Positions 17,396-60,289 of a stretch of 64,000 nucleotides of DNA are shown here, piece by piece (within the stretch, counting starts at the first letter, position 1; every line of letters starts with the position of its first letter). A program made the translations under genes and the position numbers. The stretch is taken from the NCBI GenBank assembly GCA_964471435.1, contig CAYYGA010000001.1, forward strand, positions 108,944-172,943, read 5' to 3'. This DNA is from an uncultured Facklamia sp. GTDB taxonomy: Bacteria > Bacillota > Bacilli > Lactobacillales > Aerococcaceae. The notes under the pieces were generated by a model. That model saw nothing but the letters and a program-made list of their open reading frames with translations. It had not been told where the DNA came from and made no database searches.

Positions 17396-18762
17396 TATTT
17401 AGCCACCTCCGCTAAAGCTGCAACAAAATCGTCCATCTCTTGCTTAGTACGTTTTTCAGTTGCACATAGTAAGTAGACATTGTCTTCTCCATAAGCTTTA
17501 GAAGCATCATATCCACCTACGAAACCTTTTTCATGTAAATCTTTGTTTACTTGTTTAATGTCTTTATTTAACTTAATAGCAAACTCATTAAAGAATGGAG
17601 CATCATTTAATACTTCAAATCCATTTTCTTTTAATTGTTTTGCTAAGTAGTGAGCATTATTGATGTTTGCTTGGGCCAAGTCTTGAATACCTTGTTTTCC
17701 ATATGCAGTCATCGCGATTGATGAAGATAATGCGTATAAAGCTTGGTTAGATGAATAGTTAGATGTAGCTTTTTCACGACGGATATGTTGCTCACGGGTT
17801 GATAATGTCATTACAAAACCACGTTTGCCATCTTCATCTACTGTTTCACCAACAATACGGGAAGGGATTTTACGCATTAATTTATCAGTTACAGCAAAGT
17901 AACCACAGTGTGGTCCACCAAATGACATTGGAATACCGAATGGTTGAACGTCTCCCACTGTAATGTCTGCACCTAATGCTCCTGGTTTTTCTAATTTACC
18001 TAAAGCTAATGGGTTAGCTGATACAATTAATAATGTTTTTGTACCTTCTAATGCTGCTTTGATTTCTTTTAAATCTTCTACTGAACCAAAGAAGTTAGGA
18101 TATTGAACGATTACTGCTGCAACATCTTTACTTAATTTTGATTTCAAGTCTTCAATGTCTGTAACAGTTCCTTCTAATGCAACTTCTTCAACATCATAGT
18201 CTTTACCAAATCCGTAAGTTTTTACAGTTTCAATTGCTTGAGGGTTAACAGATTTAGAAATTAATACTTTTGAAGATTTTTTAACATGACCAACAGCCAT
18301 GTTTGCAGCTTCAGATACAGCATTATAACCGTCATATAATCCACAGTTAGCTAAATCCATACCTGTTAATTCAGCAATCATTGTTTGCCACTCAAATAAA
18401 GCTTGTAATTCTCCTTGAGAAACTTCTGGTTGGTATGGAACATATGCTGTCAGGAATTCTTGACGCATAATAATGTGGTTTACAATTGTCGGGATATGGT
18501 GATCATAAGTTCCTGCTCCAATAAAGAAAGGCATTTGAGTAGCAGTCGTATTTTCTGCTGCCATTGAACCTATCTCTTTAAGCAATTCGTATTCTGATAA
18601 TGGTTCTGGTAAATCCATCGCTTCTGTACGACGGCCTTCTTCAGGGATATCTTGGAAAATATCCATAATTTCTTTAACGCCAATTTTTTCCAGCATTTCT
18701 TGGCGGTCTTGATCAGTATTTGGTAAATATCTAAAATTTGCCATATTCTGCTCCTTGTTCAT
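17395..18762 (-). CDS. gcvPA: Glycine dehydrogenase (decarboxylating) subunit 1
   Basis: 455 aa. N-terminal [15 protein letters not shown] and [11 protein letters not shown] motifs typical of P-protein alpha. Confidence 0.9.
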
Positions 18763-18811
18763 TTAGTATTTTCTATTATCTTCGTGAAATCGCAAACAAT
18801 TTTACATTAAA

Positions 18812-18840
18812 TTTAGAGTGACTTTAAAAGCCACTCTAAA
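18812..18840 (-). terminator. Intra-operon hairpin between gcvH and gcvPA (possible partial terminator or processing site)
   Basis: TTTAGAGTG (18812-18820) pairs with CACTCTAAA (18832-18840) across an 11-nt loop. Both sides are A/T-rich. Confidence 0.3.
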
Positions 18841-18859
18841 TTTTTAAGCTATTTAAGGT

Positions 18860-19219
18860 TTACTCAGTTGGTGCTTCAGTTAAGTAGTCTGAAGTATCAA
18901 TATCTTCTTCAGCTTCTAATTCAATAAACCAACCTTTTCCAGCTGCATCTTCGTTAACTGTCTCAGGTGCATCTTCTAAGTCTTCGTTAACTGCTACTAC
19001 TTTACCAGCGAATGGAGCGTAAACTTCAGAAACAGATTTAACTGATTCTACTGTTGCGATTTCTTCTTCAGCGTCTAACTCATCGTCAACTTCTGGTAAT
19101 TCGATATGTACGATGTCGCCTAATTGGTCTGCAGCAAAGGCTGTAATTCCAATACGTGCTTTGTTAGGTGCTAAAATTTCAATCCACTCGTGATCTTCTG
19201 TGTAAAATACTTCTGCCAT
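18860..19219 (-). CDS. gcvH: Glycine cleavage system H protein
   Basis: 119 aa. Lipoyl-lysine motif VESVKSVSEVYAP. Confidence 0.9.
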   Translation of the reverse strand: MAEVFYTEDHEWIEILAPNKARIGITAFAADQLGDIVHIELPEVDDELDAEEEIATVESVKSVSEVYAPFAGKVVAVNEDLEDAPETVNEDAAGKGWFIELEAEEDIDTSDYLTEAPTE

Positions 19220-19299
19220 AATTAAAAACCCCTTTTCATTTTTTGTTATATTAATAGTTTATCAAACTTTTGTGAAATATGAAACATCTATTAACAAAA

Positions 19300-20433
19300 T
19301 TATTTATTTGCTAACCAATCTTTCTTAGTTAATTCTGCTTCAATATCTTTTCCACGAATATCGATAATAACTTTATCGCCTACTTTATAAGAGCTAGGTA
19401 CACTTACCATTCCGAAAGGATATCCTAATGTTGGGCCTTTTGTTCCGGATGTAACTGTTCCGATAACTTCACCGTCTAGGTTTTTAACATCCATACCGGT
19501 ACGGGCAATTTGTTTACCATCAATCTTGAATCCGCGTGAAACAATTTTCTTGTCGCCAGCACGGTAAGCATCAATTGCTTCTTTACCGATAAAGTCAACA
19601 TCTTTATCTTTTGGAACAGCAAAAGCAATACCTGCTGCTACCGGGTTAATATCTTCGCTGAATTCATTACCGTATAATGGCAAGCCTGCTTCTAGACGTA
19701 ATGTGTCACGTGCTCCTAAAGCACATTCAACAACACCGAGGTCTTGTCCTTCTTCAACTAGTTTTTTCCAGATGTCTACCATTGAGTCAGATGGTACGTA
19801 TAATTCAAATCCATCTTCACCTGTATAACCTGTACGAGAAATTTGAACATTATCAAATCCAGCAACTTTTTGATCAGCTAAATATGAGTAATATCCAATT
19901 TTAGTTAAATCAGTCTCAGTTAAACGACTTAATAACTCTTCAGCTTTAGGTCCTTGAACTGCGATTAATCCCCAGTCGTAAGTCTCATCAGTAATTTCTA
20001 CTGCATTGTCAGTGTTGTGTTTGTTCATCCACTCAACAATTTTTTCACGATTTGATCCGTTAGGAGTAACAATTAACTCATCAGCGTTTCTACGGTAATA
20101 AATTAAATCATCCAACATACCGCCGTCTTCTTTAGTAACAGCTGTATATTGAGCTTTACCGTCATCTTTGATTTTACGCGTGTCGTTTGTGATAAGAGTA
20201 TTCCACCAATCAAAAGCATTTTTTTCTTTTGATTTCACACGTACTTCACCCATATGAGAAGCATCGAATAAACCTACTGCTTCACGAACTGCTTTATGTT
20301 CTTCATTGATTTTAGATATTTGAATAGGTAAAGCCCATCCACCAAAATCAACAAGCTTAGCGCCTTTTTCAACATAGTAGTCATACATAGGGGTTTGTTT
20401 TAAACCATTAGCGTCTGTTTTAACTTCTGACAT
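19300..20433 (-). CDS. gcvT: Aminomethyltransferase (glycine cleavage T protein)
   Basis: The start is set at MSEVKTD (ATG 20433, RBS GAAGGAG). The 40-aa ORF-track extension would overlap the upstream gene. T-protein pattern: TPMYDYY..., GYTGEDGFE. Confidence 0.9.
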   Translation of the reverse strand: MSEVKTDANGLKQTPMYDYYVEKGAKLVDFGGWALPIQISKINEEHKAVREAVGLFDASHMGEVRVKSKEKNAFDWWNTLITNDTRKIKDDGKAQYTAVTKEDGGMLDDLIYYRRNADELIVTPNGSNREKIVEWMNKHNTDNAVEITDETYDWGLIAVQGPKAEELLSRLTETDLTKIGYYSYLADQKVAGFDNVQISRTGYTGEDGFELYVPSDSMVDIWKKLVEEGQDLGVVECALGARDTLRLEAGLPLYGNEFSEDINPVAAGIAFAVPKDKDVDFIGKEAIDAYRAGDKKIVSRGFKIDGKQIARTGMDVKNLDGEVIGTVTSGTKGPTLGYPFGMVSVPSSYKVGDKVIIDIRGKDIEAELTKKDWLANK

Positions 20434-20461
20434 ATTTATATTTCTCCTTCTTAAAATAAAA

Positions 20462-21097
20462 TTAGTTTGAGGGTACGAGAATTTCTTTAACTTGAGCGTA
20501 TAATTCATCAGTTTTAGCTGACAATTCTTCAACTTTATTATTCGCCATATCAAAATACTCTTCTTTAGTAGCCTGATCTTTCAATTGACCTCCATTGATG
20601 TATAAGTTTAAAGAGCTTGCATGAACTGCTGAACGCAGCATTTGCAAACCAACACCAACATCTGAGATAATCATTTTTTTGATCAGGGGAATAATTTTTT
20701 CAAATCCGTCCAATATGCTTTCAACTTCGTTTAGTAAATCTATAGGGGGTTTACTAGCAATTTTTAAACCTTCTTCTATCGCTGCAAGACGAGCTTCTTT
20801 TTCCTCGTCTGTATCACGCGACATGCCATAGGCTTTGGATAAAGGACCAAAATCTATGGCATCACGGTCAATGATGTCAATAAAAATATCTTTACTTTTT
20901 TCAAAGTCTTCAATTTTATTTTCTAAAAACTGCTTTTCATCTTCTGATATTTTTTTAGAAGAAGTAGAGAAATACATTGCCATTAAGATTGCACCGATTC
21001 CTAGACCAGCGGTGACACCTGCTGCTGCACCGCCGCCTGGAGTTGGCTCATCAGAGGCAAGTTTATTAATAAATTCAGTGACTTTTAATTCTTTCAT
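20462..21097 (-). CDS. fchA: Cyclodeaminase/cyclohydrolase family protein (FTCD C-terminal domain; methenyl-THF cyclohydrolase FchA-like)
   Basis: 211 aa. N-terminal LASDEPTPGGGAAAGVTAGLG signature of the FTCD_C/FchA family. Embedded between folD and gcvT. Confidence 0.75.
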   Translation of the reverse strand: MKELKVTEFINKLASDEPTPGGGAAAGVTAGLGIGAILMAMYFSTSSKKISEDEKQFLENKIEDFEKSKDIFIDIIDRDAIDFGPLSKAYGMSRDTDEEKEARLAAIEEGLKIASKPPIDLLNEVESILDGFEKIIPLIKKMIISDVGVGLQMLRSAVHASSLNLYINGGQLKDQATKEEYFDMANNKVEELSAKTDELYAQVKEILVPSN

Positions 21098-21108
21098 GAA
21101 TTTCCACT

Positions 21109-21963
21109 CTATTCTACGTTATTTAAAAGTTTAGCACCTTTAACAACTTGAGATGCTAATACACCAGTTGTAACAGATCCTACTCCACCTGGAACAGGTG
21201 TAATTGCGCCTGCTTTTGGTTCAACTTCATCAAAGCGTACATCTCCTGTTGCTTTGCCGTCTTTATAACCAAAACCAACATCGATTACAGTTGCACCTTC
21301 TTTAATGTAGTCTGGTCCAACTAATCCTAAAGCACCAGTAGCTGAAATAACGATATCTGCCAAAGTAGTATGGATTGTATTATCTTTACTGTAGACGTGT
21401 GTATTAGATACAGTTGCATTACGATTAGAAAGCATCACAGCTAATGGTTTCCCAACTACTGGAGAAGATCCTACAACCGCAACTTCTGCACCTTCTAATT
21501 CATAATCATAGTAATCTAGAATTTCGATACAAGCTTGTGCTGTACTTGGTGCCATAGCTGAAGGGTCATTATTTAATAATTTACCTAAGTTAACTGGATT
21601 TAAAGCATCAACGTCTTTAAATGGGTGTAAACGTTCAGCAATTTCAGCACGCTCGATTCCTTCTGGGAATGGCTGCATAATAATAACACCTGATACAGAT
21701 TCATCTTCGTTTAATTCATCGATGATTTTTATTACATCTTCAGTAGTAGTAGCATCAAGTTCTGTACGAGCTTCTGCATCGATACCACATTTTTCCATAA
21801 CCTTCATTGCACTTTTTTCATAAGCCATTGAAGAAGGATTTTCATCTACACGTAAAACTACTAATTTAGGAACTATTCCTTGTTCGCGTAACTTTTCAGC
21901 TTCTTGCTTTGTACGCTCGCGAATCGCTTTCCCAACTTCTTTACCATCTAAAATTTTTGACAT
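21109..21963 (-). CDS. folD: Bifunctional methylene-THF dehydrogenase/methenyl-THF cyclohydrolase
   Basis: 284 aa. ILDGK...YxxxK active-site region (MAYEKSAMK), GSSPVVGKP NADP-binding loop, and PVPGGVG. Confidence 0.9.
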   Translation of the reverse strand: MSKILDGKEVGKAIRERTKQEAEKLREQGIVPKLVVLRVDENPSSMAYEKSAMKVMEKCGIDAEARTELDATTTEDVIKIIDELNEDESVSGVIIMQPFPEGIERAEIAERLHPFKDVDALNPVNLGKLLNNDPSAMAPSTAQACIEILDYYDYELEGAEVAVVGSSPVVGKPLAVMLSNRNATVSNTHVYSKDNTIHTTLADIVISATGALGLVGPDYIKEGATVIDVGFGYKDGKATGDVRFDEVEPKAGAITPVPGGVGSVTTGVLASQVVKGAKLLNNVE

Positions 21964-22072
21964 AATTTCCTCCGCTTCCTGTTATTTAATATTTCTATAA
22001 GCAAGCAAAACGAACGAGCAGCCATACCCGCCCGTTTCACTTTTGTAAAAAATAATAAACTATTGTTAAGGA

Positions 22073-23743
22073 TTAGAATAATCCAGAGATGTTTCCTTTT
22101 TCGTCAACATCAATACGGTTTGAAGCTGGCTCTTTTGGTAATCCAGGCATCTTCATGATATCACCTGTAAGAGCAACGATGAAGCCTGCACCTGCTGAAA
22201 CTGTTAAATCACGAATAGTAATTTTGAATCCTTCAGGAGCACCTAATAATTTAGCATCATCTGAGAATGAATATTGTGTTTTAGCCATACAGATTGGCAA
22301 GTCGCCATGACCTTGATCTGTAAATTGCTTAATTTTCTTTTTAGCAGCTGGAGTAAATTCAACACCGCTACCACGGTATAATTTTGTAACTAAAGCTTCT
22401 ATTTTTTCTTCGATTGAAGCATCAGTTTCGTAAGCAAACTTAAAGTTATTTTCTTTTTCTGCTTCTTCTACTACTACTTTAGCTAATTCAGTTGTTCCTT
22501 CTCCACCATTTGAGAAGTGAGTTGCTAATACAACTTTAACGCCAACTTTTTCACACTCTTCTTGTAGAGCTTTAACTTCTGCGTCTGTATCAGTTGGGAA
22601 TTGGTTGATTGCTACAACTGGGTTTAGACCAAAGACATTTTGTAAGTTGTCAATGTGACGTAATAAGTTAGGCATACCGTTACGTAAAGCATCTACATCT
22701 TCATCTTTCAAGTCATCTTTAGCTAATCCACCATGCATTTTCAATGCGCGGATTGTTGCTACTACTACCACAGCATCAGGAGTGATTCCAGCTTGACGAG
22801 CTTTGATGTCTAAGAACTTCTCAGCACCTAAGTCAGCACCGAAACCTGCTTCTGTAACTGTATACTCAGCATAATTCATTGCTAATTTTGTAGCGATGAT
22901 TGAGTTACATCCGTGAGCAATATTTGCAAATGGTCCACCGTGAATAAACGCTGGAGTTCCTTCTAATGTTTGTACGATGTTTGGTTTGATTGCATCTTTT
23001 AGTAAAGCAGTGGCTGCACCAGCACCATTAATGTCATCTACAGTAACTGGCTTGTTATCTTTACGAGTATAAGCAACGATCATGTCGCCTAATTTTTGCT
23101 TTAATTCAGCTAATGAATTAGATAAACAGAATGCGGCCATTACTTCTGAAGCTACAACAATATCGTAACCGTCTTCACGTGGAACACCGTCTACTCTACG
23201 TCCTAAACCATTGACGATATTACGTAATTGACGGTCGTTCATGTCAACTACACGTCTCCAAACTACACGGTTAACATCAATATCTAAAGCATTTCCATGA
23301 TGGATATGGTTATCTAATAATGCTGCGATTAAGTTAGTTGCTGCACCAATCGCATGGAAGTCTCCCGTGAAGTGCAGGTTGATATCTTCCATTGGTACTA
23401 CTTGAGCGTAACCTCCACCAGCAGCTCCACCTTTAACTCCGAAAACTGGTCCTAATGACGGCTCACGTAAAGCAACCGCTGCTTTTTTACCAATTTTACT
23501 TAATCCATCTGCTAAACCGATAGATGTTGTAGTTTTACCTTCACCAGCAGGTGTTGGTGTGATGGCAGTAACTAGAATTAATTTTCCTAGGTCCTTGTCA
23601 TCCATATCTAATTGTGTGAAATCAATTTTCGCTTTCGTTTTACCATAAGGCTCTAAAACTTCGTTTGAGATACCTAATTTTGCTGCAACTTCTTCAATCG
23701 GCTGCAATTTGGCTTCTTGTGCGATTTGAATATCTGTCTTCAT
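22073..23743 (-). CDS. fhs: Formate--tetrahydrofolate ligase
   Basis: [11 protein letters not shown] start (ATG 23743). P-loop [16 protein letters not shown]. About 556 aa. Confidence 0.92.
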
Positions 23744-23795
23744 TAAAAAAAATTCCCCCTTTAGATAAATCACATAGATTTACTATGCTCTATTC

Positions 23796-41631: not shown

Positions 41632-42084
41632 TTGGCAGAAGCCTTAATTGTTTTTGCAAGCTTGACTGGAAATACAGAAGAGATGGCTGATATTATCGCT
41701 GAAAGATTTGAAGATGAACATGGGATTACCACGGAGATTTTAGAGGTAATGCAGGCAGACGCAGCAGATTTTTTAGATTATGATGCAGTATTAGTTGGCT
41801 CTTATACATATGGAACTGATGGAATTCTTCCAGATGAGATGCTGGACTTTTATGAAGACTTAGGAGAACTGGACTTATCTGAAAAAGTCTTTGGAGTTTT
41901 TGGTTCCGGTGATACTTATTACGAAATTTTTTGCGGAGCCGTTGATGCATTTGAAAAACAGTTTACTCAAGTCGGTGCTGTAAAGGGTGGCGAAAGTGTC
42001 AAAATTAATTTAAATGCTGAAGGTGAAGATATCGAACGTTTGCAAACCCTGGCAGATGGCATCGCCGCTCAATTAATGCAATAA
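41632..42084 (+). CDS. Flavodoxin (short-chain)
   Basis: 150 aa. TTG start after GAGGAGGGG. FMN-phosphate loop ASLTGNTEEMA. Confidence 0.85.
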   Translation: MAEALIVFASLTGNTEEMADIIAERFEDEHGITTEILEVMQADAADFLDYDAVLVGSYTYGTDGILPDEMLDFYEDLGELDLSEKVFGVFGSGDTYYEIFCGAVDAFEKQFTQVGAVKGGESVKINLNAEGEDIERLQTLADGIAAQLMQ

Positions 42085-49849: not shown

Positions 49850-50476
49850 ATGGAAAAATTTAAGATTGAAGAAGGGTCTTTAATTGTTATTAATCATCCA
49901 AAACAAGAATTGAAAAAAGTTTTCCCCGCTGCTTTTATCAAACAAACAGAAATAGGAAATTTTCAAGAGTATCTATTTTATCATCAACGCTTTTTCCCAG
50001 GCCTGCCTCGAAAAAAAAGACCGGATTTTATTTTAAATCAACTTGATAGTCAAGAAATAACGGCGCACTTTCTCCTAGTAAGTTCTGCTTTTGGTTTAGA
50101 TGATGACGAGGATGCTGGTCTGGCCGTGATTACCGCTTTGAAATCCATCGGTCTTCGTGCGCTAATCGGCCGTAAGTTTGGGGAGCAGTTCAAAATGAAT
50201 GCCTTAAAAAAAGGATTATTGATAATTGAGCTCACCCATGATGATTGGCAGCATTTAATAGACTGGCAGGCGGATCAAGCTCAAATAAATCCATTAATTA
50301 AAATAGATTTAATTAATGAGAAAATTATTTTTAATCATTCAGAAATGAATTTTACCCTAAATAAAAGTATAAAAAACCATTTTTTAAAAGGAGAAGATCA
50401 AATCAGTTATTCATTACAATTTCTTAATGCAATTAAAGCATACGAGGAAAATCTAACTTATAATAAATATAAATAA
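49850..50476 (+). CDS. LeuD-like (aconitase swivel domain) paralogue with degenerate substrate-loop motifs
   Basis: 208 aa, RBS AGGGAGG. It is collinear by eye with the real LeuD at 51965-52573 (EYLF/EFLF, PDFILN/PSFPLN, GLRALIG/GFRVVIAG, FKMNALKKGLL/FYMNSLKNGLL, IDL/VDL, AIKAYE/ALKSYE). NVNTDQILP is replaced by PKQELKKVFP, and GGSSREHA by GLDDDEDA. Confidence 0.6.
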   Translation: MEKFKIEEGSLIVINHPKQELKKVFPAAFIKQTEIGNFQEYLFYHQRFFPGLPRKKRPDFILNQLDSQEITAHFLLVSSAFGLDDDEDAGLAVITALKSIGLRALIGRKFGEQFKMNALKKGLLIIELTHDDWQHLIDWQADQAQINPLIKIDLINEKIIFNHSEMNFTLNKSIKNHFLKGEDQISYSLQFLNAIKAYEENLTYNKYK

Positions 50477-51964: not shown

Positions 51965-52573
51965 ATGCAAGCATTTACCGTTCATCGTGGGACAACTGTT
52001 ACTCTGTGGGAAGACAATGTGAATACCGACCAAATTCTTCCCAGCCGTTATTTAAGTCGTATAGAAAAAACAGGCTACGATGAATTTTTATTCGCTAACT
52101 GGCGTTACTTAATTACCGAAGCAGAACCTGAATCAAGAAAACTTAACCCCAGCTTTCCATTGAATCTACCAGACCGTCAAGGAGCGAGTATTTTAATTAC
52201 AGGTGATAATTTCGCAGGAGGCTCTTCAAGAGAACATGCCGTTTGGGCCTTGGATAATTATGGTTTTCGCGTGGTGATAGCAGGTTCCTATTCAGATATT
52301 TTTTATATGAACTCTTTAAAGAATGGTTTATTGGCCCTTACACTGCCTTTAGAAGATCGCGAGCTGCTAGCTCAATTAGCGGGCGATGAAGAAATTGAAG
52401 TAGATTTAGTAAAGCAGGAAGTTAGGACAGCTGATACTACTTTTTCTTTTAAAATTGATGAAGAATGGCGTTATAAATTACTTCACGGTATTGATGATAT
52501 TACTCAAACTTTGGAACATGAGACAGCTTTAAAAAGCTATGAAGCCAAGTGGGATCCTTTCTATCAAAAGTAA
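51965..52573 (+). CDS. leuD: 3-isopropylmalate dehydratase small subunit
   Basis: 202 aa. NVNTDQILP and NFAGGSSREHAVWAL motifs. Confidence 0.92.
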   Translation: MQAFTVHRGTTVTLWEDNVNTDQILPSRYLSRIEKTGYDEFLFANWRYLITEAEPESRKLNPSFPLNLPDRQGASILITGDNFAGGSSREHAVWALDNYGFRVVIAGSYSDIFYMNSLKNGLLALTLPLEDRELLAQLAGDEEIEVDLVKQEVRTADTTFSFKIDEEWRYKLLHGIDDITQTLEHETALKSYEAKWDPFYQK

Positions 52574-52736: not shown

Positions 52737-53486
52737 CTATAATGCCTCAACATGTAATAAGTCCATTATTTGTTTTCGATAAGCTAAGAACTGATCATCA
52801 GTTCTGCCTCTAGGATGATCTAGTTCGATCGGAATAATTTCCATTACACGACCAGGTCGCGGCGACATCACAATTACTTTCTCACTCAGATATATTGCCT
52901 CATCAACATCGTGAGTCACCATAATCATTGTAATATTATTTTTTTCCCAAATACTTAACAGCTCTGTTTGTAGTCGAAGTCGGGTAAATGCATCGAGGGC
53001 ACCTAAAGGCTCATCTAATAAAAGAATTTCAGGATTATTATAAATAGCTCTTGCTAAAGAAACTCTTTGAGCCATCCCTCCAGATAATTGATGAGGGTAT
53101 GCTTGCTCAAACCCACTTAAGCCAATTGTATCGATCATCTCCTGCACAGGCATTTGCTTATTTTTTAATTTCCCAAGTATCTTTGGACCAAATTTTATAT
53201 TGTCTTCTACCGTCAACCAAGGAAATAAGGTTGGACTTTGGAAAGCCATCCCAATCTTGCTGTCAGGACCAGTCACCTCTTTTGTATCAAGCACAATTCT
53301 ACCTGTAGTAGGAGGTGTTAACCCGGCAATAATACGAAGAAGTGTTGATTTACCAGACCCACTTGCTCCTACAATACTGATGAATTCTCCTTCTTGAATT
53401 TCAAGATTAATTGAATCCAAGGCTTTGGTCACCGTGGCATCTGTATTAGCGAATATTTTTGAAACATCATCGATAAATAAATCCAC
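52737..53486 (-). CDS. ABC transporter ATP-binding protein, NitT/TauT (SsuB/TauB-like) family
   Basis: 249 aa. GTG start. Walker A GASGSGKST, signature LSGGMAQR, Walker B LLLDEP. Confidence 0.85.
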   Translation of the reverse strand: MDLFIDDVSKIFANTDATVTKALDSINLEIQEGEFISIVGASGSGKSTLLRIIAGLTPPTTGRIVLDTKEVTGPDSKIGMAFQSPTLFPWLTVEDNIKFGPKILGKLKNKQMPVQEMIDTIGLSGFEQAYPHQLSGGMAQRVSLARAIYNNPEILLLDEPLGALDAFTRLRLQTELLSIWEKNNITMIMVTHDVDEAIYLSEKVIVMSPRPGRVMEIIPIELDHPRGRTDDQFLAYRKQIMDLLHVEAL

Positions 53487-53489
53487 CGC

Positions 53490-54497
53490 TTAAACACTCC
53501 CCTCTTGCCACTTAAGGACGTACCGTTTAATTTTATCTAATAAAAATTTAACCGTAACAAAAATCAAGCAGATAATCACAATAGCCGCGTACATTTTGTC
53601 GTATTGAGCCCAGTTACGCTGCCATGTGACGTACCAACCTAAACCTGACTCCACCCCAACCATCTCTGCGAAGATTAATGCTGTACACGCAGTACTCATG
53701 GCTTGAGTAAGCCCTTGAAAGATATTTGGCATTGCTCCTGGTATAGTTACTCTGCGAATGAGCTGCTGGTCATTGGCTCCCAAAACTTGGGCTGCTTCAT
53801 AGTAAGATTGACTAATGTTATGTATTCCAGCTATCGTTGATAAAGATACCGAGAACCAGACACCTAAGGCAATAATGAATACCGCACCGGTAAATAGTGA
53901 GGTGACTAAAACCATTACGATTGGAATCCATGTAATGGTTGGAATCGCTCCGATTAAACTCATAAAAGGCGCTAACCAATAATTGACTCGTTTACTGTAG
54001 CCACAAATAATACCAGTAATTAATCCTAAAGCAACGCCCCAGCCGTAACCCGTAAATAAGAGCTTGAGAGAATTTAATATTGAATCTAAAAGATATGCCC
54101 GGTCATCAATCATGGCATTTATAATTGCATCCACCCAAGGGAAATAAGGTAAAGTTAAGCGTCCTGTTTTAAGTGTCATTACATCATATATAATCAGCAG
54201 AACATATACCAATGTATGAAATGGTGCTTTATATCGCAGCCGCGCAAATGCTTTCTTAGAAAAAAGCGAGGCGATAAAATAAATGGTTGAACCTGCTATA
54301 AAAATTAATAGAAAATAGACATAATTCATAGTTTGCTGCTGCGAGCCTTCATTTTCTATAAACCAATATTCCAAGATGGCTAAAACACCTGCTACGATTG
54401 GCAGAAAACAAATCACCCGATCAATGAATATTTCTTGTTTTGTTTTTGGTTTACTTTCAAGCTCTAGAAGCTCTTCTTTCGTAATTGTTTCTGACAT
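53490..54497 (-). CDS. ABC transporter permease, NitT/TauT family, with an N-terminal extension
   Basis: 335 aa. EAA-type loop YEAAQVLGANDQQLIRRVTIPGAMP. There are about 3 extra TMs N-terminal to the usual 6-TM core. Confidence 0.8.
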   Translation of the reverse strand: MSETITKEELLELESKPKTKQEIFIDRVICFLPIVAGVLAILEYWFIENEGSQQQTMNYVYFLLIFIAGSTIYFIASLFSKKAFARLRYKAPFHTLVYVLLIIYDVMTLKTGRLTLPYFPWVDAIINAMIDDRAYLLDSILNSLKLLFTGYGWGVALGLITGIICGYSKRVNYWLAPFMSLIGAIPTITWIPIVMVLVTSLFTGAVFIIALGVWFSVSLSTIAGIHNISQSYYEAAQVLGANDQQLIRRVTIPGAMPNIFQGLTQAMSTACTALIFAEMVGVESGLGWYVTWQRNWAQYDKMYAAIVIICLIFVTVKFLLDKIKRYVLKWQEGSV

Positions 54498-54568
54498 ATC
54501 ACACCTCCATCATTAATAAAATTTTGGGCTATTTCGCAATAGCCCAAAGTTGAGGATACTCTTATTAT

Positions 54569-55603
54569 TTAGTTCTGTGGGGACCAAATCATCTCCATTA
54601 ATTCTTCGACAGTTTTATCAGCATCCATAAAACCAAATGTTTGGTAATCAGCAATAATTGCTTTAAGTGTTGCTTCAGTAGTGGCATCTGACACTTTATA
54701 ATCTAATGATTTAATATAATCAACAGTCGTATCGCGATCACCTGTAGTCCAGTCGTTTGCATACAATGCATCAACAAAGTCTTCTGGGTTCTCCGCAGCC
54801 CACTCACGAGTTCTTTGAATCGCACGTGCTACTTTCTTGGCGGCAACCGGATTATTTGTAACAAAGTCATTATTTGCATAAAATGCACAACAAGCTTCTT
54901 GACTAAAATCTTCATCAAACGATAATGAACGAACGCGTTTTAATGTCCCGTTCTCAACGAAATCCCATGCAAATTTGTCGGTTAATATAACGCCTTGAAT
55001 TTCCCCGCTTTCGACTGCCTGCACAGCTGCACCACTGTCTACTTGACGATAATTGATATCTAATGGATCAATTCCGTCATTATTAAAGAAGCGGAAAGCA
55101 ATATTTTGGTCTGATGATCCAGTTCCTTCAGGTACCGCTACGATTTGTCCTACTAAGTCAGCAGTATCATTAATTTCATCGTTGTTTAAAACATAAAGTG
55201 ATTTACAACCTACATGCAGTCCAGTTAACGTAGTATATCCTACATCATTAGCAATCGGAATAACGTTAGTAGAAATATGTCCTGCTGTTACGTCCGCTTG
55301 CCCTGTCCCTAGTGCATCAGAGTTACTTGCAGCTTGATAGATTTCAATTTGTAAGCCTTCTTCTTCATAAAAGCCTTCAGTTAAAGCCACTCCTATAATG
55401 CCTGTACAATCTCCACCACTATAAGCTACCTTGATAGCTTCATTAGCTTTAGGTTCACTCTTAAATGCTTCTTCCTCTTCAGCTGTGATTTCAACAGTAA
55501 CAACGTCATTGTCCTGAGCATTGACAGTAGTCATTGCCGCTTGTGCGAATGGTAAAGTTGCCAGTGATAAAGCTATAATTTTTTTTACGAATGATTTTTT
55601 CAT
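54569..55603 (-). CDS. ABC substrate-binding protein, NMT1/SsuA/TauA-like (paralogue 2)
   Basis: The start is set at MKKSFVKK (ATG 55603, RBS GGAGGA). Signal peptide ends VNA-QD with no lipobox. Four Cys (GGDCTG, VGCKS, EACCAFY) are shared with the neighbouring paralogue. Confidence 0.75.
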   Translation of the reverse strand: MKKSFVKKIIALSLATLPFAQAAMTTVNAQDNDVVTVEITAEEEEAFKSEPKANEAIKVAYSGGDCTGIIGVALTEGFYEEEGLQIEIYQAASNSDALGTGQADVTAGHISTNVIPIANDVGYTTLTGLHVGCKSLYVLNNDEINDTADLVGQIVAVPEGTGSSDQNIAFRFFNNDGIDPLDINYRQVDSGAAVQAVESGEIQGVILTDKFAWDFVENGTLKRVRSLSFDEDFSQEACCAFYANNDFVTNNPVAAKKVARAIQRTREWAAENPEDFVDALYANDWTTGDRDTTVDYIKSLDYKVSDATTEATLKAIIADYQTFGFMDADKTVEELMEMIWSPQN

Positions 55604-55635
55604 ATTTTCCTCCAATGTTAAGTCGCTTAAATTTA

Positions 55636-56664
55636 TTAGTGTTGTGGTCTCCATACCATTTCTAATAATTCTTCATCGGTCATACTATCATCAATAAAGC
55701 CAAACTCTTTATAGTCTGAGATAACCATCTTTAATGATTCTTCGGTATCACTATCCGTCACACCGTAATCTAACTCTGCAATATAATCATTTATAATATC
55801 AATGTCACCAGTAGCCCAATTATTCTCTATCATGACATTCACATACTCTTCAGGATTTTCAACAATCCACTCACGTGTTTTTTGAATTGCACGTGTCAAT
55901 TTTTTAGTCGCAATAGGATTTTCTGCCTGAAAATCATTATTAATATAAATTCCACAACATGGCTGCCAACTGAAATCTTCATCATAAGACAAAGCACGCA
56001 CATATCTTAATTGACCACTATCAACGAACTCTCTTGCAAATTGATCATTAAGTACGACCCCTTGAACCTCACCATTTTCAATCGCTTGTACTGCTGCTCC
56101 AGAGTCTACTTGACGGTAATTAATTGATAATGGGTCAATACCATCCGCTTTGAAGAATCGGAAAGCAATATTTTGGTCTGAAGCTCCCATTCCATCAGGA
56201 ACAGCTAATATTTGACCTACCAAATCCGCAGTAGTTTCTATATCGCTGTCAGTAGCGACATAAATTGATTTACAACCTGTATGAGCTCCCGTCACCATGG
56301 AGAAGTTTACACCATTAGCCATTGGTACCATTGCTGTAGCAATATGATCCCCAGAGATATCTGCCTGCCCGGTACCTAATGAATCATTAGCGCTGCTCAT
56401 ACTGATTATCTCAGTGTTTAAGCCTTCCTCTTCATAAAACCCAAGTGCTTGCGCTACTCCAAGGACTCCTAAACAAGTTCCACCATTATAGCCCACTTGA
56501 ATAAGTTCATTCGCAGCGTCCTCTTCTTGAAAAGCTGTTTCTTCTTCTTGACTTATTTCAACAGTGACCACTTCTTCTGCACTTACGGTCGGAATAAAAG
56601 CACTACCAGCTCCTACAAGTAAAGTTGATGCCACAACCATTGCTTTAACTAACGTTTTTTTCAT
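55636..56664 (-). CDS. ABC substrate-binding protein, NMT1/SsuA/TauA-like (paralogue 1)
   Basis: 342 aa. Signal peptide ends VSA-EE with no lipobox. Collinear with 54569-55603 along its whole length (GGTCLG, TGCKS, QPCCGIY). Confidence 0.75.
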   Translation of the reverse strand: MKKTLVKAMVVASTLLVGAGSAFIPTVSAEEVVTVEISQEEETAFQEEDAANELIQVGYNGGTCLGVLGVAQALGFYEEEGLNTEIISMSSANDSLGTGQADISGDHIATAMVPMANGVNFSMVTGAHTGCKSIYVATDSDIETTADLVGQILAVPDGMGASDQNIAFRFFKADGIDPLSINYRQVDSGAAVQAIENGEVQGVVLNDQFAREFVDSGQLRYVRALSYDEDFSWQPCCGIYINNDFQAENPIATKKLTRAIQKTREWIVENPEEYVNVMIENNWATGDIDIINDYIAELDYGVTDSDTEESLKMVISDYKEFGFIDDSMTDEELLEMVWRPQH

Positions 56665-57068
56665 AACTATTGTCTCCCTTATGTTTGATAAAAAATAGCT
56701 TGAACTTTACAACATGCTCATTGTATCGCATGACTTTAAAAGCTACAATGGGGCCTTAAATCATTAATAATTATTTTAAATAAACCTTTAAAAATAATTT
56801 TAAACGTTTTTTTATTTTTTGAATCCCTTTTCATTTTTTAATAACAACCTTAATCTAAATTAATGAGTAAAATCTTAAGGTATTATAACCTATGCCACAG
56901 TAAAACATCGGGTTATTTTAATAAACTAGGATACTTCCAAGAGATATATAAAATTTATATCTTAAAAATTTTATACTTATTAATAAATATAATTAGTTAA
57001 AAGTAATTATTTTCCTTATTATATTCATAACATGAGAAATAGTGAGCAAGGAAGAAAGGAAGTATATA

Positions 57069-58229
57069 ATGGAAATCAAGACAAATTTACCAGAAATATT
57101 TGAAGAATTTAATGATGCAAGGCGTGAAGGCTTTCTTACCGTTAAAGAATTTAAAGAACAGGGCCAGCCTGTTATAGGTGCTTATTGTACTTATATCCCT
57201 GAGGAATTGGTTATTGCGGTGGGAGCAACAATGATTGGCTTATGCTCGACTACTGAAGAATCGATTGATGATGCAGAGGAAGATTTACCCCGTAATTTAT
57301 GCCCTTTAATAAAGTCGAGTTATGGTATGGCAAAAATGGATAAATGCCCTTATTTTCACTTTGCTGATTTAGTGGTAGGAGAGACCACTTGCGACGGTAA
57401 AACAAAAATGTATGAATATATGACGGAATTTAAACATTTATACTTAATGGAAGTTCCCCGCTCACGAAAACTAGAACAAAGTCAGAATATGTGGTACGAA
57501 GAAGTAGTTCGGTTTAAAGAGTATTTAGAAGAGTATTTCCAAACCGAAATTTCTGGAGAAAAGTTAAATGAAGCAATTGACTTAATGAATCGCTACCGCA
57601 CAGCTAAAAGAAATTTCTACCGAACAGGAGCCTTATCACCTTCAGTATTAACTGGAAAAGAAATTTTTGGTGTGTGTTTTGGGACAGGCTTTACTTTTGA
57701 TAAAGAGGAAACAATTAAAAATTTAAATCTATTAACCGAAGAAGCATATGCACGCTATGAAGCGGGGAATACCTTAGTAGATAAACCGCGAATTTTGATT
57801 ACCGGCTGCCCAATGGGCGGGGTCACAGAAAAAATTATTGATGCCATAGAAGCTAATGGCGGCCGAGTGGTCGCATATGAAAACTGTACTGTTTCAAAAT
57901 CAGTAGAAGAGTTGGTAAACATAGAAGAGCCTGATCAAATTAAAGCGTTGGCGGATAAATATTTAAATGTAGGCTGTGCTTGTGCTTCTAGTAATGATAC
58001 CCGTGTCCAATTAATTGATGAAATGGTAGATGATTTCCAAGTTGATGGTGTTATTGACATGGTTTTACAAAACTGTGTACCTTTTATGGTTGAATCCTTG
58101 AGAATTAAACGTTTCTGCCAAGAAGAAAAAAATGTACCTTATATGTATTTAGAAACTGATTATACTGAATCAGATATTGGACAATTAAATACCAGAGTTG
58201 CTGCTTTTATTGAAATGTTGGAGGGATAA
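57069..58229 (+). CDS. HgdB/BcrC/BadD-family (2-hydroxyacyl-CoA dehydratase-type, HGD-D) Fe-S protein, single subunit (YjiM/double-cubane-cluster-protein-like)
   Basis: 386 aa from ATG 57069 (RBS AAAGGAAG 6 nt upstream; the track GTG at 57042 has no RBS). Cys-rich with family-typical GAYCTYIPEEL, GETTCDGKTKMYE and ITGCPMGG. It is immediately followed by an activase gene. Confidence 0.7.
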   Translation: MEIKTNLPEIFEEFNDARREGFLTVKEFKEQGQPVIGAYCTYIPEELVIAVGATMIGLCSTTEESIDDAEEDLPRNLCPLIKSSYGMAKMDKCPYFHFADLVVGETTCDGKTKMYEYMTEFKHLYLMEVPRSRKLEQSQNMWYEEVVRFKEYLEEYFQTEISGEKLNEAIDLMNRYRTAKRNFYRTGALSPSVLTGKEIFGVCFGTGFTFDKEETIKNLNLLTEEAYARYEAGNTLVDKPRILITGCPMGGVTEKIIDAIEANGGRVVAYENCTVSKSVEELVNIEEPDQIKALADKYLNVGCACASSNDTRVQLIDEMVDDFQVDGVIDMVLQNCVPFMVESLRIKRFCQEEKNVPYMYLETDYTESDIGQLNTRVAAFIEMLEG

Positions 58230-58231
58230 GA

Positions 58232-59035
58232 ATGTTTTACATTGGTATGGATTCAGGTTCAACAACCACTAAGGCTGTTATCTTTTCTGAAGGAGAACTA
58301 ATAGACAAGTATCTAATACCAACCGGTGGACGACCCCGAGAAGCGATGGCAGAGATAATGGATTACTTCAAGCACCGCCATCAATATAGTCCAAACCAAG
58401 TTAAAGTAGTTAGTACTGGATATGGCCGTGATTTATGGGAAAGCGATTGGGTTGTCACAGAAATAACGTGTCATGGTAAAGGTGCCGAATATCTACACCC
58501 GGGGATAGAAAACGTGATTGACATCGGTGGACAAGATTGTAAGACAATGAAACTCAATGGCAAAGGACTAGTCATGGATTTTAATATGAATGACCGCTGT
58601 GCAGCTGGTACCGGTCGGTTTGTTGAAGTGATGATGCGCACTTTAGGTGAAGAAGTTGATGTTCTCGACGGATTTGTTGAAGGAGCCGTACCAGCAAAAA
58701 TCAATGCTACTTGTACAGTATTTGCTGAATCAGAAGTGATTTCTTTACTCGCTAAAGGAGAAAAACAAGGTGATATCGCTCTAGGTGCCCTTCATTCGAT
58801 TACTCAGCGCATCAACGGACAATACGCCAAACTACGTCCTGATAAAAATGCACCTGCCCTTTTTACAGGAGGATTATCTAAAAGTCAAACTTTTGCTAAT
58901 ATACTAGCTGAACGTTTTGATACTTCTGTCGTAACACATACCCTCGGCCAATATGCTGGCGCAATCGGCGCAGCATTAATTGCCGAACAAAGGTTTAATA
59001 AACAAAATAAGCAAAAAGTTAGCCTGATACAATGA
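58232..59035 (+). CDS. BcrA/BadF/HgdC-type ATPase (acyl-CoA dehydratase activase / archerase)
   Basis: 267 aa. ASKHA-fold motifs GMDSGSTTTK and IDIGGQDCK. Bridging-cluster Cys lie in NDRCAAGTGRF and NATCTVFAESE. RBS is GGAGGG. Confidence 0.85.
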   Translation: MFYIGMDSGSTTTKAVIFSEGELIDKYLIPTGGRPREAMAEIMDYFKHRHQYSPNQVKVVSTGYGRDLWESDWVVTEITCHGKGAEYLHPGIENVIDIGGQDCKTMKLNGKGLVMDFNMNDRCAAGTGRFVEVMMRTLGEEVDVLDGFVEGAVPAKINATCTVFAESEVISLLAKGEKQGDIALGALHSITQRINGQYAKLRPDKNAPALFTGGLSKSQTFANILAERFDTSVVTHTLGQYAGAIGAALIAEQRFNKQNKQKVSLIQ

Positions 59036-59078
59036 GTTTAATGAATTAATCTTATAGTTGAAAAAAAGGAGAAACAAG

Positions 59079-60131
59079 ATGAAAAGAAAATTATTACAGT
59101 TAATGACTTTAGCGACTTTATTGGCTCCAATGAGTTTACCCACAGTAAGTATTTTTGCCCAAGACAATACAGATGCTGCAGTAAGTGATTTTGACACAAC
59201 TCCCTCAGGTTCAGATGACTGGGTTCAAATTTATGAAACAGGGAATCATAATTTTGCTAAATTTGGCGAATTAAATCCAGAAGTGGCTCAGGCTTTTGGA
59301 GCATTAGGAGGAGTAGCTCTAGCAGACGGTGAAGTATCTGCTCTAGACAAAGAACTGATCGCAGTAGCCTTAAGTGTAGAAGCACAATGTACTAAGTGTA
59401 TTTCTTCTCATGTTATAAATGCTTTAAAATTAGGAGCGACACGTAATCAAATCGCTGAAGTTGTAGGAGTTAATATATTGATGGGAGGCGGACCTACATC
59501 GGTTTACGCTGGCAAAGCCATTGATGCCTTTGACGTTTTATCAGTTGACTATGCTGAAGAAATTGAAGCGGCTCAAGCGGAAATTTCCGATGCTGAAGAT
59601 TCAATTACTGAGACTGAATCTGAAATAGAAGCTACAGAATATGATACTGAGGCTTCTGGATCTGATGATTGGGTAGAAATATATGAAACAGGAAATCATA
59701 ATTTTGCTAAGTTCGCTGAATTGAATCCAGAGGTGGCTGAAGCTTTTGGAGCTTTCGGAGCAGCTGCCTTAGCAGATGGTGAAGTGAGTGCATTAACAAA
59801 AGAAATGATTGCAGTAGCATTATCGGTTTCTAGCCAATGTACAAAATGCATTTCTTCTCATGTAATTAATTTTATTAATTTAGGCGGTACTCGTGAACAA
59901 TTGGCTGAAATTGTAGGAGTAAATATCTTAATGGGCGGTGGACCGACTTCCGTTTATGCCGGAAAAGCCATTGATGCCTTTGATGTTTTATTACCAGCAT
60001 ATGGAACACAAGTTGGAGATCAAGATAATGAAGAATCAGTTGAAGATGAGTCAACTGAGGAAGATATAGTAGAAGAAGAAACCTCTGTAGAAGTAACTGA
60101 TGAAGAGGAAACTACTGAAGAAAATAATTAA
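59079..60131 (+). CDS. Exported protein with two tandem AhpD/carboxymuconolactone-decarboxylase (CMD)-like domains and an acidic tail
   Basis: ATG 59079 lies 7 nt after AGGAG (the track TTG at 59058 is less likely). Signal peptide MKRKLLQLMTLATLLAPMSLPTVSIFA-QD. Each repeat carries CTKCISSHV (CxxCxxxH). An acidic linker and a D/E-rich C-terminus are present. No LPXTG and no lipobox. Confidence 0.7.
   Translation: MKRKLLQLMTLATLLAPMSLPTVSIFAQDNTDAAVSDFDTTPSGSDDWVQIYETGNHNFAKFGELNPEVAQAFGALGGVALADGEVSALDKELIAVALSVEAQCTKCISSHVINALKLGATRNQIAEVVGVNILMGGGPTSVYAGKAIDAFDVLSVDYAEEIEAAQAEISDAEDSITETESEIEATEYDTEASGSDDWVEIYETGNHNFAKFAELNPEVAEAFGAFGAAALADGEVSALTKEMIAVALSVSSQCTKCISSHVINFINLGGTREQLAEIVGVNILMGGGPTSVYAGKAIDAFDVLLPAYGTQVGDQDNEESVEDESTEEDIVEEETSVEVTDEEETTEENN
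59208..59541 (+). repeat. Intragenic tandem duplication, copy 1 (CMD-like domain)
   Basis: 334 nt, aligning without gaps to 59658-59991 (offset 450 nt). Roughly four-fifths of positions are identical by eye. Confidence 0.85.
59658..59991 (+). repeat. Intragenic tandem duplication, copy 2 (CMD-like domain)
   Basis: See copy 1. Long shared runs include TATGAAACAGG, AATCATAATTTTGCTAA, CATTTCTTCTCATGT and AAAGCCATTGATGCCTTTGA. Confidence 0.85.
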
Positions 60132-60204
60132 GCCGTAGAATAGACAAATACTCCTCTTGCTCTAAATTAAAACTACAGAATGGTTTAATTTAGTTATCAA
60201 AGAA

Positions 60205-60245
60205 AGAAGACCGTCACACTAAAAATGGTGACGGTCTTTTTATTT
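60205..60245. terminator. Bidirectional terminator between the CMD-like gene and oppF
   Basis: AAGACCGTCAC (60207-60217) pairs with GTGACGGTCTT (60228-60238), followed by TTTTATTTT. Confidence 0.8.
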
Positions 60246-60289
60246 TAATGATTTTTGAAATTAATAAAGAGCTCTAATTATTGAGAACT

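Follow-up and report, generated by a model that had tools for sequence, protein, structure and literature searches.

A cysteine-lined ABC importer beside a double-cubane cluster protein in an uncultured Facklamia: a candidate import-and-reduce module for a thiophilic, possibly selenium-containing, substrate

A 64,000-nucleotide stretch of DNA from an uncultured Facklamia sp. (assembly GCA_964471435.1, contig CAYYGA010000001.1, positions 108,944 to 172,943; hereafter the window) carries, at positions 52737-60131, two divergent operons that encode an ATP-binding cassette (ABC) importer and a double-cubane cluster protein (DCCP) with its activase. The list of open reading frames (ORFs) of the window places seven genes in this interval. 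In the order of transcription, the minus strand encodes two substrate-binding proteins (SBP-B and SBP-A), a permease and an ATPase, and the plus strand the DCCP, the activase and an exported protein with tandem AhpD/CMD-like domains. An earlier sequence-only reading of this DNA had named the seven genes, the two operons and the protein families, and the ORF list and Pfam confirmed all of these. In our view importer and DCCP are likely to work as a single module that imports and reduces a thiophilic substrate. As the best explanation of the whole locus we tentatively propose, on the basis of genome context, a high-affinity, cysteine-lined importer joined to an ATP-driven reductase module, whose cargo would be a thiophilic chalcogen or metalloid and most likely selenium.

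Results

The HGD-D protein of the rightward operon (57069-58229, plus strand, 386 aa) is, by its family scores and ligand pattern, a DCCP with its own cognate activase, DCCP-R. It matches Pfam HGD-D with 371 bits and passes the double_cubane equivalog model NF040772 with 489.8 bits against a cutoff of 350. Its best PDB matches are 7yyl_C and 6eno_A, both the DCCP of C. hydrogenoformans (E 2.5e-72); the alignment spans residues 36-393 of the window protein and keeps all cluster cysteines. The comparison of cysteine ligands with the DCCP site that the sequence-only reading had suggested, here made by sequence alignment to 7YYL/6ENO, thus came out in favour of a DCCP, and the protein no longer stands as the unclassified single-subunit HGD-D member of that reading. 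In ORF numbering the cysteine pattern is C49-X18-C68-X18-C87-X29-C117-X164-C282-X29-C312-X32-C345, which represents the seven-Cys motif that ligates or flanks the [8Fe-9S] cluster, with linker lengths 1-3 residues off the published consensus. Cys49, 68, 87, 102, 117, 282, 312 and 345 are conserved among the DCCPs linked to importers of the window type. A further cysteine, C256 (ITGCPMGG, ORF numbering), is found in 27 of 29 aligned importer-linked DCCPs and is a Thr in the C. hydrogenoformans reference structure.

The activase, an ASKHA-fold 'archerase' of 267 aa (58232-59035, plus strand), matches Pfam BcrAD_BadFG with 176 bits and TIGR00241 CoA_E_activ with 228.5 bits (cutoff 125.4). Its gene follows the DCCP gene after a 2-nt gap and has a GGAGGG ribosome-binding site. 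The same two-gene unit of a seven-Cys HGD-D protein and an ASKHA ATPase is known from C. hydrogenoformans (6ENO, 7YYL; Jeoung and Dobbek 2018, 2022), for which no transporter context has been described. The window DCCP is about 27 residues shorter at its N-terminus than the C. hydrogenoformans enzyme, in which these residues form channel-closing helices, and therefore belongs to the shorter YjiM-like 'class II' (PMC7317905). DCCPs are homodimers that do not need an alpha subunit, their cluster resists typical low-potential reductants such as dithionite, and acetylene, azide and hydrazine are substrates in vitro (PMC9351452). Their physiological function has stayed unknown despite solved structures and nitrogenase-like chemistry (PMC9351452, PMC7317905). 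A specialised DCCP subfamily linked to the importer was considered and rejected, since the window DCCP is 59-82% identical to Lactobacillales DCCPs that stand alone or are differently placed, compared to 40-48% for other importer-linked DCCPs; Haft and Gwadz did not find a signature separating DCCP groups either (10.1101/2022.07.06.499078).

The leftward operon on the minus strand combines an NMT1-type SBP, a BPD_transp_1 permease and an ABC ATPase and has thus the NitT/TauT-type architecture by Pfam. The ATP-binding subunit (52737-53486, 249 aa; Pfam ABC_tran 126 bits) shows Walker A (GASGSGKST), signature (LSGGMAQR) and Walker B (LLLDEP) motifs in its translation, and its homologues, with 50-58% identity, adjoin the permease gene in nearly all related loci. 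In the permease (53490-54497, 335 aa) the Pfam domain BPD_transp_1 covers residues 158-326 only. About 100 N-terminal residues contain two or three extra hydrophobic segments (23-41, 60-78 and 91-109), in agreement with the additional N-terminal transmembrane segments that had been noticed before, and this membrane extension is conserved across the importer family. SBP-A (54569-55603; NMT1 59 bits, NMT1/SsuA fold, Sec signal peptide) and SBP-B (55636-56664, 342 aa; NMT1 and NMT1_2) are paralogues with 57% identity, which bears out their earlier description as tandem paralogous NMT1/SsuA-type proteins. The SBP profile matches solved structures of SsuA, TauA, NrtA and the THI5 fold.

All specific NCBIfam importer models for sulfonate, taurine, nitrate and thiamine scored below their cutoffs (SBP-A reached 64 bits with SsuA_fam, cutoff 163.5), which speaks against the thiamine-precursor or sulfonate importer that had been named as an alternative. 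The best curated matches of the transporter are instead the components of the SAO system of Clostridioides difficile and other anaerobes, all of them far below cutoff: SaoA for the ATPase (261 bits, cutoff 360), SaoP for the permease (120 bits, cutoff 295) and SaoX for the SBPs (61 bits for SBP-A and 71 bits, cutoff 300).

The distinctive feature of the importer is its cysteines. SBP-A has Cys83, 150, 255 and 256 (ORF numbering), and SBP-B Cys64, Cys131 and the pair Cys236-Cys237. All 205 homologous copies have Cys at positions C131, C236 and C237, and 196 of 204 at C64. Of 139 permease homologues 138 keep C271, and about 90% keep C165 and C310. The CC pair of the SBPs aligns with the CCCFC region of THI5, which reportedly lies near the active site and is linked to iron. 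The family is rare, with 76 clusters among 5.8 billion proteins in a word-indexed search and 179 relatives among 185,579 species genomes, and its hosts include Finegoldia, Parvimonas, Treponema, Synergistetes, gut Clostridia and aerotolerant Lactobacillales-type bacteria. A CC motif is absent from the 38 SBPs of E. coli K-12 and from the 27 other annotated SBPs of C. difficile 630 (Haft and Gwadz).

The SBPs of this family are often tandem duplicates, as in the window and about a dozen other loci, or fused into one protein of 756 aa, and the fused forms matching the tandem pairs suggest that the two SBPs may act together. One such fusion of two four-Cys SBPs lies at L073:2257-4527, and four other loci have the same form (cluster c48). 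Both the window SBPs and the SBP of a near relative (L095, 6277-7323) have Sec-type signal peptides without a lipobox Cys; most homologues are lipoproteins.

With SsuABC-, TauABC-, NrtABC- and ThiY-type importers the window family shares the three-component build, the NMT1/SsuA-fold SBP, the BPD_transp_1 permease and the ATPase sequence. It differs from them by the four near-invariant SBP cysteines, the invariant permease cysteine, the N-terminal extension and the duplicated or fused SBPs, and no sulfonate, taurine, nitrate or thiamine genes are found near it. The resemblance to SAO, which is itself a bioinformatic prediction (Haft and Gwadz, bioRxiv 10.1101/2022.07.06.499078; J Bacteriol 2023), goes further. 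Both have a NitT/TauT-type importer, a CC motif in an NMT1-type SBP and a Cys or selenocysteine in the permease, both often adjoin a DCCP and its activase, and both are linked to selenium-using anaerobes. However, the SAO genes SaoL (MerB-like), SaoB, SaoE, SaoC, SaoT and SaoD were not found by family searches among the seven genes between leuD and the opp-like operon that flank the locus, and the accessory genes differ, being FtsX/DUF4418 or an exported AhpD-like protein in the window type. SAO has SaoX C50/C224/C225 and SaoP Sec210; the window importer has a CC motif and an invariant permease Cys, which may or may not correspond to these in position, and no selenocysteine/UGA codons, and the second SBP Cys is placed differently (C131 compared to C192 in SaoX, by spacing only). 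Judged by these features, the importer of the window is one that would work like the SAO importer but is no member of SAO.

The seven window proteins and recurrent neighbours were mapped onto 80 loci from species-representative genomes and 79 loci from metagenomes, and onto several further loci obtained by exact-protein look-up (loci are numbered with the letter L). The core of permease, ATPase and SBP is constant across the compared loci. A DCCP gene lies directly beside the importer in 8 of the 80 genome loci (L027, L042, L057, L069, L070, L071, L075 and L079), with a DCCP fragment in L078, as well as in three metagenome loci (L108, L129 and L171), in L083-86 (one lineage), in L095 and in the window. 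The adjacency thereby extends to at least 13 lineages and at least nine gene orders. These include DCCP-permease-ATPase-SBP-activase (L079), SBP-SBP-permease-ATPase-DCCP-activase (L042), permease-ATPase-SBP-DUF4418-FtsX-ATPase-DCCP-activase (L071) and DCCP-permease-ATPase-SBP (L057). Importer and DCCP genes are divergent in L069, L075, L095 and the window, and form same-strand operons in L079, L042, L071, L057 and L083. A neighbour-joining tree of 163 SBPs scatters the loci with a linked DCCP over at least seven distinct places. If two DCCP genes were placed at random in each 2.5-Mb genome, a generous assumption of our own, the chance of 8 adjacencies in 80 loci would be P = 4.5e-5.

The link between importer and DCCP is real but facultative. 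L095 keeps the head-to-head divergon, with identities to the window of 79% (DCCP), 76% (activase), 66% (permease), 68% (ATPase) and 48% (SBP); it differs by the insertion of DUF4418-FtsX-ATPase genes ahead of the DCCP gene, by a single SBP and by the lack of a CMD gene. Facklamia sp. DSM 111018 has a DCCP pair without an importer of the window type. Co-conservation of the two operons, which had been suggested as a check, gave therefore a mixed result, with the divergon kept in L095 on one side and the DCCP pair without importer in Facklamia sp. DSM 111018 and the importer without DCCP in Vagococcus on the other. The central idea of the sequence-only reading, a module that imports and reduces, is supported by the recurrence of the adjacency over so many lineages, orders and same-strand operons.

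Several related loci place the importer or the DCCP among selenium genes. In L083 and L085 (64% GC) one strand carries permease, ATPase, SBP, DCCP, activase, SelD, YedF and DUF3343. This SelD scores 384 bits with TIGR00476 and 355 bits with NF002098 (cutoff 299), YedF scores 205 bits with TIGR03527 (cutoff 110), and DUF3343 is the 'Se_S_carrier' protein. LysR regulators adjacent to the importer pass NF040786, the 'selenium metabolism-associated' LysR equivalog model (cutoff 250), in L038 of Finegoldia (305 bits), L070 (296 bits) and L075 (291 bits), and L039-41 have near-identical copies of the L038 regulator; six other LysR regulators neighbouring the importer score below this cutoff. Genes for the glycine-reductase selenoproteins GrdA, GrdB or GrdE adjoin the importer in L028, L070, L105, L122 and L095, those of L028 and L070 being GrdA-like ORFs seen by ORF clustering. 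The closest homologues of the window DCCP, from Facklamia sp. DSM 111018 (L090, 82%) and L095 (79%), as well as the DCCP of the metagenome contig L099, which has the gene order of L090, sit among yedE and grdX-grdE-grdB, with DUF3343 also present in L090 and L099. In L095 and L099 grdB was called as two pieces of 346 and 77 aa, which is how a gene with an in-frame selenocysteine codon would be expected to appear. The selenium neighbourhood was found only in such related loci (L083-86, L038-41, L070, L075, L090, L095 and L099). Searches with tblastn for SelD, YedE, YedF, DUF3343 and Grd proteins gave no match in the 80 genome loci, and in the 79 metagenome loci no SelD, YedE or YedF, with Grd genes only in L105 and L122. 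Beyond these two and the GrdA-like ORFs of L028 and L070, genes of this set came only from loci obtained through exact-protein look-up (L083-86 and L090).

At L090:7573-21161 the genes DUF4418-FtsX-ATPase-DCCP-activase are followed directly by a cluster of URO-D, corrinoid protein and RACo activase genes with its own SBP_bac_1-type ABC importer, while the yedE, DUF3343 and grdX-E-B genes of this locus are on the upstream side. By gene content this cluster looks like the 'type I mlp' cluster, and an mlp cluster has been proposed to function in methyl-selenide recycling (PMC10418091).

Published genome comparisons agree with an association between DCCPs and selenium. Haft and Gwadz (10.1101/2022.07.06.499078) found 955 of 970 strong DCCPs in SelD-positive genomes, with SelD occurring in 38% of genomes, and a DCCP within 5 kb of 40% of SAO loci. 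A selenium locus of Slackia holds HGD-D-like and activase genes, which rank as top STRING partners of YedE, YedF, LysR_Se and DUF3343 (PMC5322559). YedE and YedF (with DUF3343), earlier candidates for selenium transport or trafficking, were implicated by co-occurrence with SelD alone, as is the importer of the window. The L083 operon contains YedF and DUF3343 along with importer and DCCP, and yedE lies beside the DCCP module in L090, L095 and L099, while the protein families and energy coupling of YedE/YedF are unlike those of the window importer. Deletion of yedE in Methanococcus caused no clear selenium-transport phenotype (PMC11097638). No transporter dedicated to selenium was known in any organism in 2024 (PMC11097638), and no specific high-affinity selenium transporter in prokaryotes in 2026 (PMC13188914).

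The third gene of the rightward operon encodes an exported tandem AhpD/CMD-like protein of 350 aa (59079-60131, plus strand) with two CMD stretches (Pfam 114.5 bits) and the motif QCTKCISSH (CxxCxxxH) twice. A K/R-rich N-terminus is followed by a hydrophobic signal segment, and the linkers are acidic and of low complexity. Only the generic model ahpD_dom was passed (72 bits, cutoff 27.8). The best full-length NCBIfam match is TIGR04169, arsenosugar-associated and peroxidase-like (85 bits, cutoff 120), and the best specific matches, all below cutoff, are arsenosugar-associated, ArsM/AhpD and GSU3128 (seleno)protein families; ahpD (24 bits, cutoff 192) and PcaC (23 bits, cutoff 156) are distant, and no ahpC or pca genes lie nearby. 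The protein shares the CMD fold signature and the CxxCxxxH motif, here doubled, with the AhpD/CMD family including TIGR04169 and AhpD-domain selenoproteins, but it is exported, tandem and acidic-linked, has no AhpC partner and stays below every specific cutoff of that family.

The sequence-only reading had included the exported CMD protein in the module as an extracytoplasmic thiol-redox accessory. A role as a core part was rejected, because searches for tandem CMD homologues gave only four matches, three from the same species and one other at 54% identity. An AhpD/CMD protein accompanies the importer in 3 of about 160 loci (window, L014 and L100), the tandem form being restricted to the window species. 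In Pyramidobacter L014 it is a single-domain CMD protein with a signal peptide, encoded directly 3' of the SBP genes. The order at L100:344-6421 is SBP, CMD (124 aa, cytoplasmic-looking), SBP, C_GCAxxG_C_C redox protein, SLAC1/TehA-family channel, permease and ATPase, which places a channel of a tellurite-resistance family (TehA) inside an importer operon. The exported tandem AhpD-like protein is, judging by this distribution, a lineage-specific accessory.

The commonest accessory is a MacB/FtsX-type permease with an ATPase and a DUF4418 membrane protein, present in roughly a quarter of the loci. All 38 FtsX-type permeases carry an extracytoplasmic CC motif, and four cysteines are fully conserved across the 14 clustered copies of the DUF4418 protein. 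In one DUF4418 gene (L106:5684-6064) an in-frame TGA replaces an invariant Cys codon (APT*GPMENG compared to APTCGPMENG in the sister locus L107:5682-6062). The reading frame is kept and most downstream differences from L107 are synonymous; a search for a SECIS hairpin downstream gave no convincing candidate. The gene may represent a possible selenocysteine variant.

Discussion

Given the invariant transporter cysteines and the selenium genes around related loci, the substrate is better guessed to be a thiophilic chalcogen than one of the sulfonates, nitro/azo compounds or heteroaromatic compounds that the sequence-only reading had suggested. The parts, the conservation of the cysteines and the recurrent linkage were demonstrated, whereas every chemical step of the following scheme is inferred. 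The two exported SBPs would capture oxidised or elemental selenium through S-Se bonds at the four-Cys site; thiols and selenite are known to form selenotrisulfides in the Painter reaction (PMC8981825). The SBPs would pass the selenium to the permease dimer, in which the Cys271 pair on the translocation path might relay it across the membrane. In the cytoplasm DCCP-R would hydrolyse ATP and drive electrons, with ferredoxin or flavodoxin as the source, into the [8Fe-9S] cluster of the DCCP, which in turn could reduce the imported selenium to selenide, the substrate of the selenophosphate synthetase SelD. Since turning Se(0) into selenide takes electrons of very low potential, a need for ATP would be understandable. 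The exported tandem AhpD-like CxxC protein may keep extracytoplasmic thiols reduced or help to mobilise the substrate, and in other lineages the Cys-bearing FtsX/MacB-type module with the DUF4418 protein may hold its place. In its full form, as the first dedicated prokaryotic selenium uptake system, in which S-Se adducts are moved by a cysteine relay and DCCP/DCCP-R makes selenide for SelD, this scheme is doubtful.

A number of observations weigh against a selenium importer coupled to the DCCP. About 85-90% of the importer loci lack a DCCP gene within 10 kb, Vagococcus (L003 and L015), which gave the nearest genome matches, has the importer alone, and many DCCP pairs of Lactobacillales stand alone (L091, L093 and L097). 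SelD, YedF and DUF3343 lie beside the importer in one lineage, and no SelD, YedE or YedF was found within 10 kb in any other of the approximately 159 importer loci. In the 64-kb window itself no genes for SelD, YedE/YedF, DUF3343, LysR_Se or selenoproteins were recognisable in a search made partly by eye. Cysteine-rich sites suit As(III), Sb, Hg, Te, Cu(I) and persulfide sulfur equally, the nearest curated families of the AhpD-like protein are arsenic-associated, and the known in-vitro substrates of DCCP are not selenium compounds (PMC9351452).

Part of these observations would fit an SAO-like organometal(loid) metabolism, in which an (organo)compound of As, Hg, Sb or Te is imported and reduced by the DCCP for energy or detoxification, while selenium is involved only in the cluster or in neighbouring steps. 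Among curated families, SaoA, SaoP and SaoX come closest to the three transporter parts. Haft and Gwadz recognised SAO by its CC motifs and by a nearby DCCP, and they name a Se-bridged cluster as a formal possibility. The scores of the AhpD-like protein with arsenosugar-associated and ArsM/AhpD families and the TehA/SLAC1-family channel and C_GCAxxG_C_C redox protein in the operon of L100 point in the same direction, and the FtsX/DUF4418 module with its invariant cysteines could be an efflux or recycling arm. However, all cutoffs of the SAO models are widely missed, SaoL, SaoB, SaoE, SaoC, SaoT and SaoD are absent from the window, no ars or mer genes were seen in the related loci, and the operon fusion with SelD-YedF-DUF3343 together with the selenium-type LysR regulators points to selenium itself. 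We regard this explanation as unlikely.

Alternatively, the two operons could be fortuitous neighbours, the ABC operon importing a conventional NMT1-type ligand (sulfonate, a nitrate- or bicarbonate-like anion, or the thiamine pyrimidine) and sharing its spacer with an unrelated DCCP operon. The loci in which importer or DCCP pair occur alone, including those of Vagococcus, are what would be expected in this case, and the spacer yielded neither a common regulator nor an RNA element. Chance proximity is hard to reconcile with the recurrence of the adjacency across lineages and gene orders, same-strand operons included, at P of about 5e-5, and the importer stays below cutoff with all curated families for sulfonate, taurine, nitrate or thiamine and has invariant cysteines that are foreign to these families. 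This makes the explanation quite unlikely.

Trafficking of reduced sulfur, with import of persulfide, polysulfide, thiosulfate-type or elemental sulfur, its reduction to sulfide by the DCCP and carriers shared between sulfur and selenium, seems very unlikely. In its favour, the YedE/YeeE, TusA/YedF and DUF3343 families act on sulfur too, YeeE/YedE being listed as a thiosulfate transporter family (PMC13188914), sulfur nutrition is the classical role of NitT/TauT importers, and SsuA_fam ranks second among the matches. Cysteine relays are also typical of persulfide transfer. On the other hand, SelD and the NF040786-type LysR are selenium-specific markers, the published correlation of DCCPs is with SelD, no cys, ssu or tau genes lie beside the loci examined, and in our view sulfur reduction does not require an ATP-energised electron below the potential of dithionite.

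A role of the HGD-D protein as beta subunit in a classical 2-hydroxyacyl-CoA dehydratase or benzoyl-CoA reductase, with partner and CoA-transferase elsewhere in the genome, is effectively refuted: Pfam HGD-D and BcrAD_BadFG are common to those enzymes, and many databases name homologues '2-hydroxyacyl-CoA dehydratase', but the scores for HadC (114 bits, cutoff 700), BzdN (76 bits, cutoff 454) and BcrC (42 bits, cutoff 421) are far too low compared to that for double_cubane, all cysteines of the DCCP set are present, the best match among solved structures is a DCCP, and the linked loci hold no partner gene, in agreement with a homodimer that needs no alpha subunit (PMC9351452). Dehydratases of this type and class I benzoyl-CoA reductases have a homologous catalytic scaffold and likewise depend on an activase that injects electrons at the cost of ATP, but they are heteromers that act on CoA thioesters with [4Fe-4S] clusters, while the locus of the window has only one subunit, which carries the cysteines of a double-cubane protein, and lacks genes for CoA handling.

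The cysteine-lined importer with its DCCP reductase thus has its closest precedent in the association of SAO and DCCP described by Haft and Gwadz, and the locus of the window is, as far as its gene content and motifs tell, a cysteine-only, minimal relative of this theme. The locus had been called a candidate undescribed system before. This needs to be restricted, since the link between DCCP, selenium and a Cys/selenocysteine-rich importer (SAO) is already found in Haft and Gwadz. It holds for the four-Cys importer family, the FtsX/DUF4418 partner and the importer-DCCP-SelD operon, for which our literature searches gave no description; searches on DUF4418, on the function of YjiM/YjiL and on selenium together with an ABC binding protein gave nothing beyond Haft and Gwadz. 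If the selenium reading is true, it would give DCCPs their missing physiological function. Both the function of DCCP and the prokaryotic selenium transporter become directly testable questions, since the locus is a compact seven-gene import-and-reduce version that uses cysteine and no selenocysteine and offers concrete proteins to purify and knockouts to make, with one relative (the L083 lineage) fused in an operon to SelD-YedF-DUF3343. If the cargo is another soft metalloid, the locus would be a simpler, selenium-free cousin of SAO, still informative on metal(loid) handling by host-associated anaerobes.

Gene starts, regulatory elements and flanking genes

Start codons were corrected by ribosome-binding sites and the starts used by public gene callers. 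For the DCCP gene ATG 57069, with an AAGGAAG ribosome-binding site and public calls of 386 aa, is preferred over GTG 57042, from which the mechanical ORF starts. The shared divergent promoter region is consequently 404 bp long (56665-57068) and not 377 bp as stated earlier, while its AT-rich character stands (GC 0.276 at 56500-56999). The start of the CMD protein was moved to ATG 59079 (mechanical ORF from TTG 59058). For SBP-A, whose mechanical ORF reaches 55654, it was moved to ATG 55603 with GGAGG as the ribosome-binding site ahead, which removes the apparent overlap with the SBP-B gene.

Rfam gave no family in the whole window at gathering thresholds and none in the spacer at E<=1, so that no riboswitch or known leader was detected. 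A promoter scan returned 21 promoter-like sites compared to 26.8 expected from shuffled sequence and thus no enrichment. Repeats in the spacer are limited to low-complexity AT matches and weak palindromes, from which no operator could be defined, and the spacer sequence is common only to near-identical strains. A scan for terminator-like structures found a hairpin with an 11-bp stem and a T-rich tail on the minus strand (54523-54548), in the gap between the SBP genes and the permease gene, which is probably an attenuator or mRNA stabiliser favouring the SBP transcripts.

The genes leuA-B-C-D lie upstream of the locus (leuD 51965-52573) and a convergent opp-like operon lies downstream (from 60290). 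Between leuD and the opp-like genes no second HGD-D subunit (HgdA-type partner), CoA-transferase, ligase or regulator is present, as had been read from the sequence before. A bidirectional intrinsic terminator (60204-60246) with a perfect 9-bp core stem (GACCGTCAC/GTGACGGTC) and an A-run and a T-run on its flanks closes both the rightward operon and the opp-like operon. It folds with -22.3 kcal/mol (z = -6.3), and 0 of 200 shuffled sequences fold as well.

A short-chain flavodoxin gene of 150 aa with an SLTGNTE motif was recognised by eye 15 kb upstream of the locus (41632-42084, plus strand); HgdC-type activases are known to use flavodoxin as a physiological electron donor (PMC7317905). Inside the leucine operon, between leuB and leuC, lies an ORF of 208 aa without a Pfam match (49850-50476, plus strand). 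At 15899-23773 on the minus strand gcvT, gcvPA and gcvPB were identified by eye together with folD-like, cyclohydrolase-like and formate-tetrahydrofolate ligase genes, a one-carbon and glycine theme in a host whose relatives have glycine reductase beside the DCCP module.

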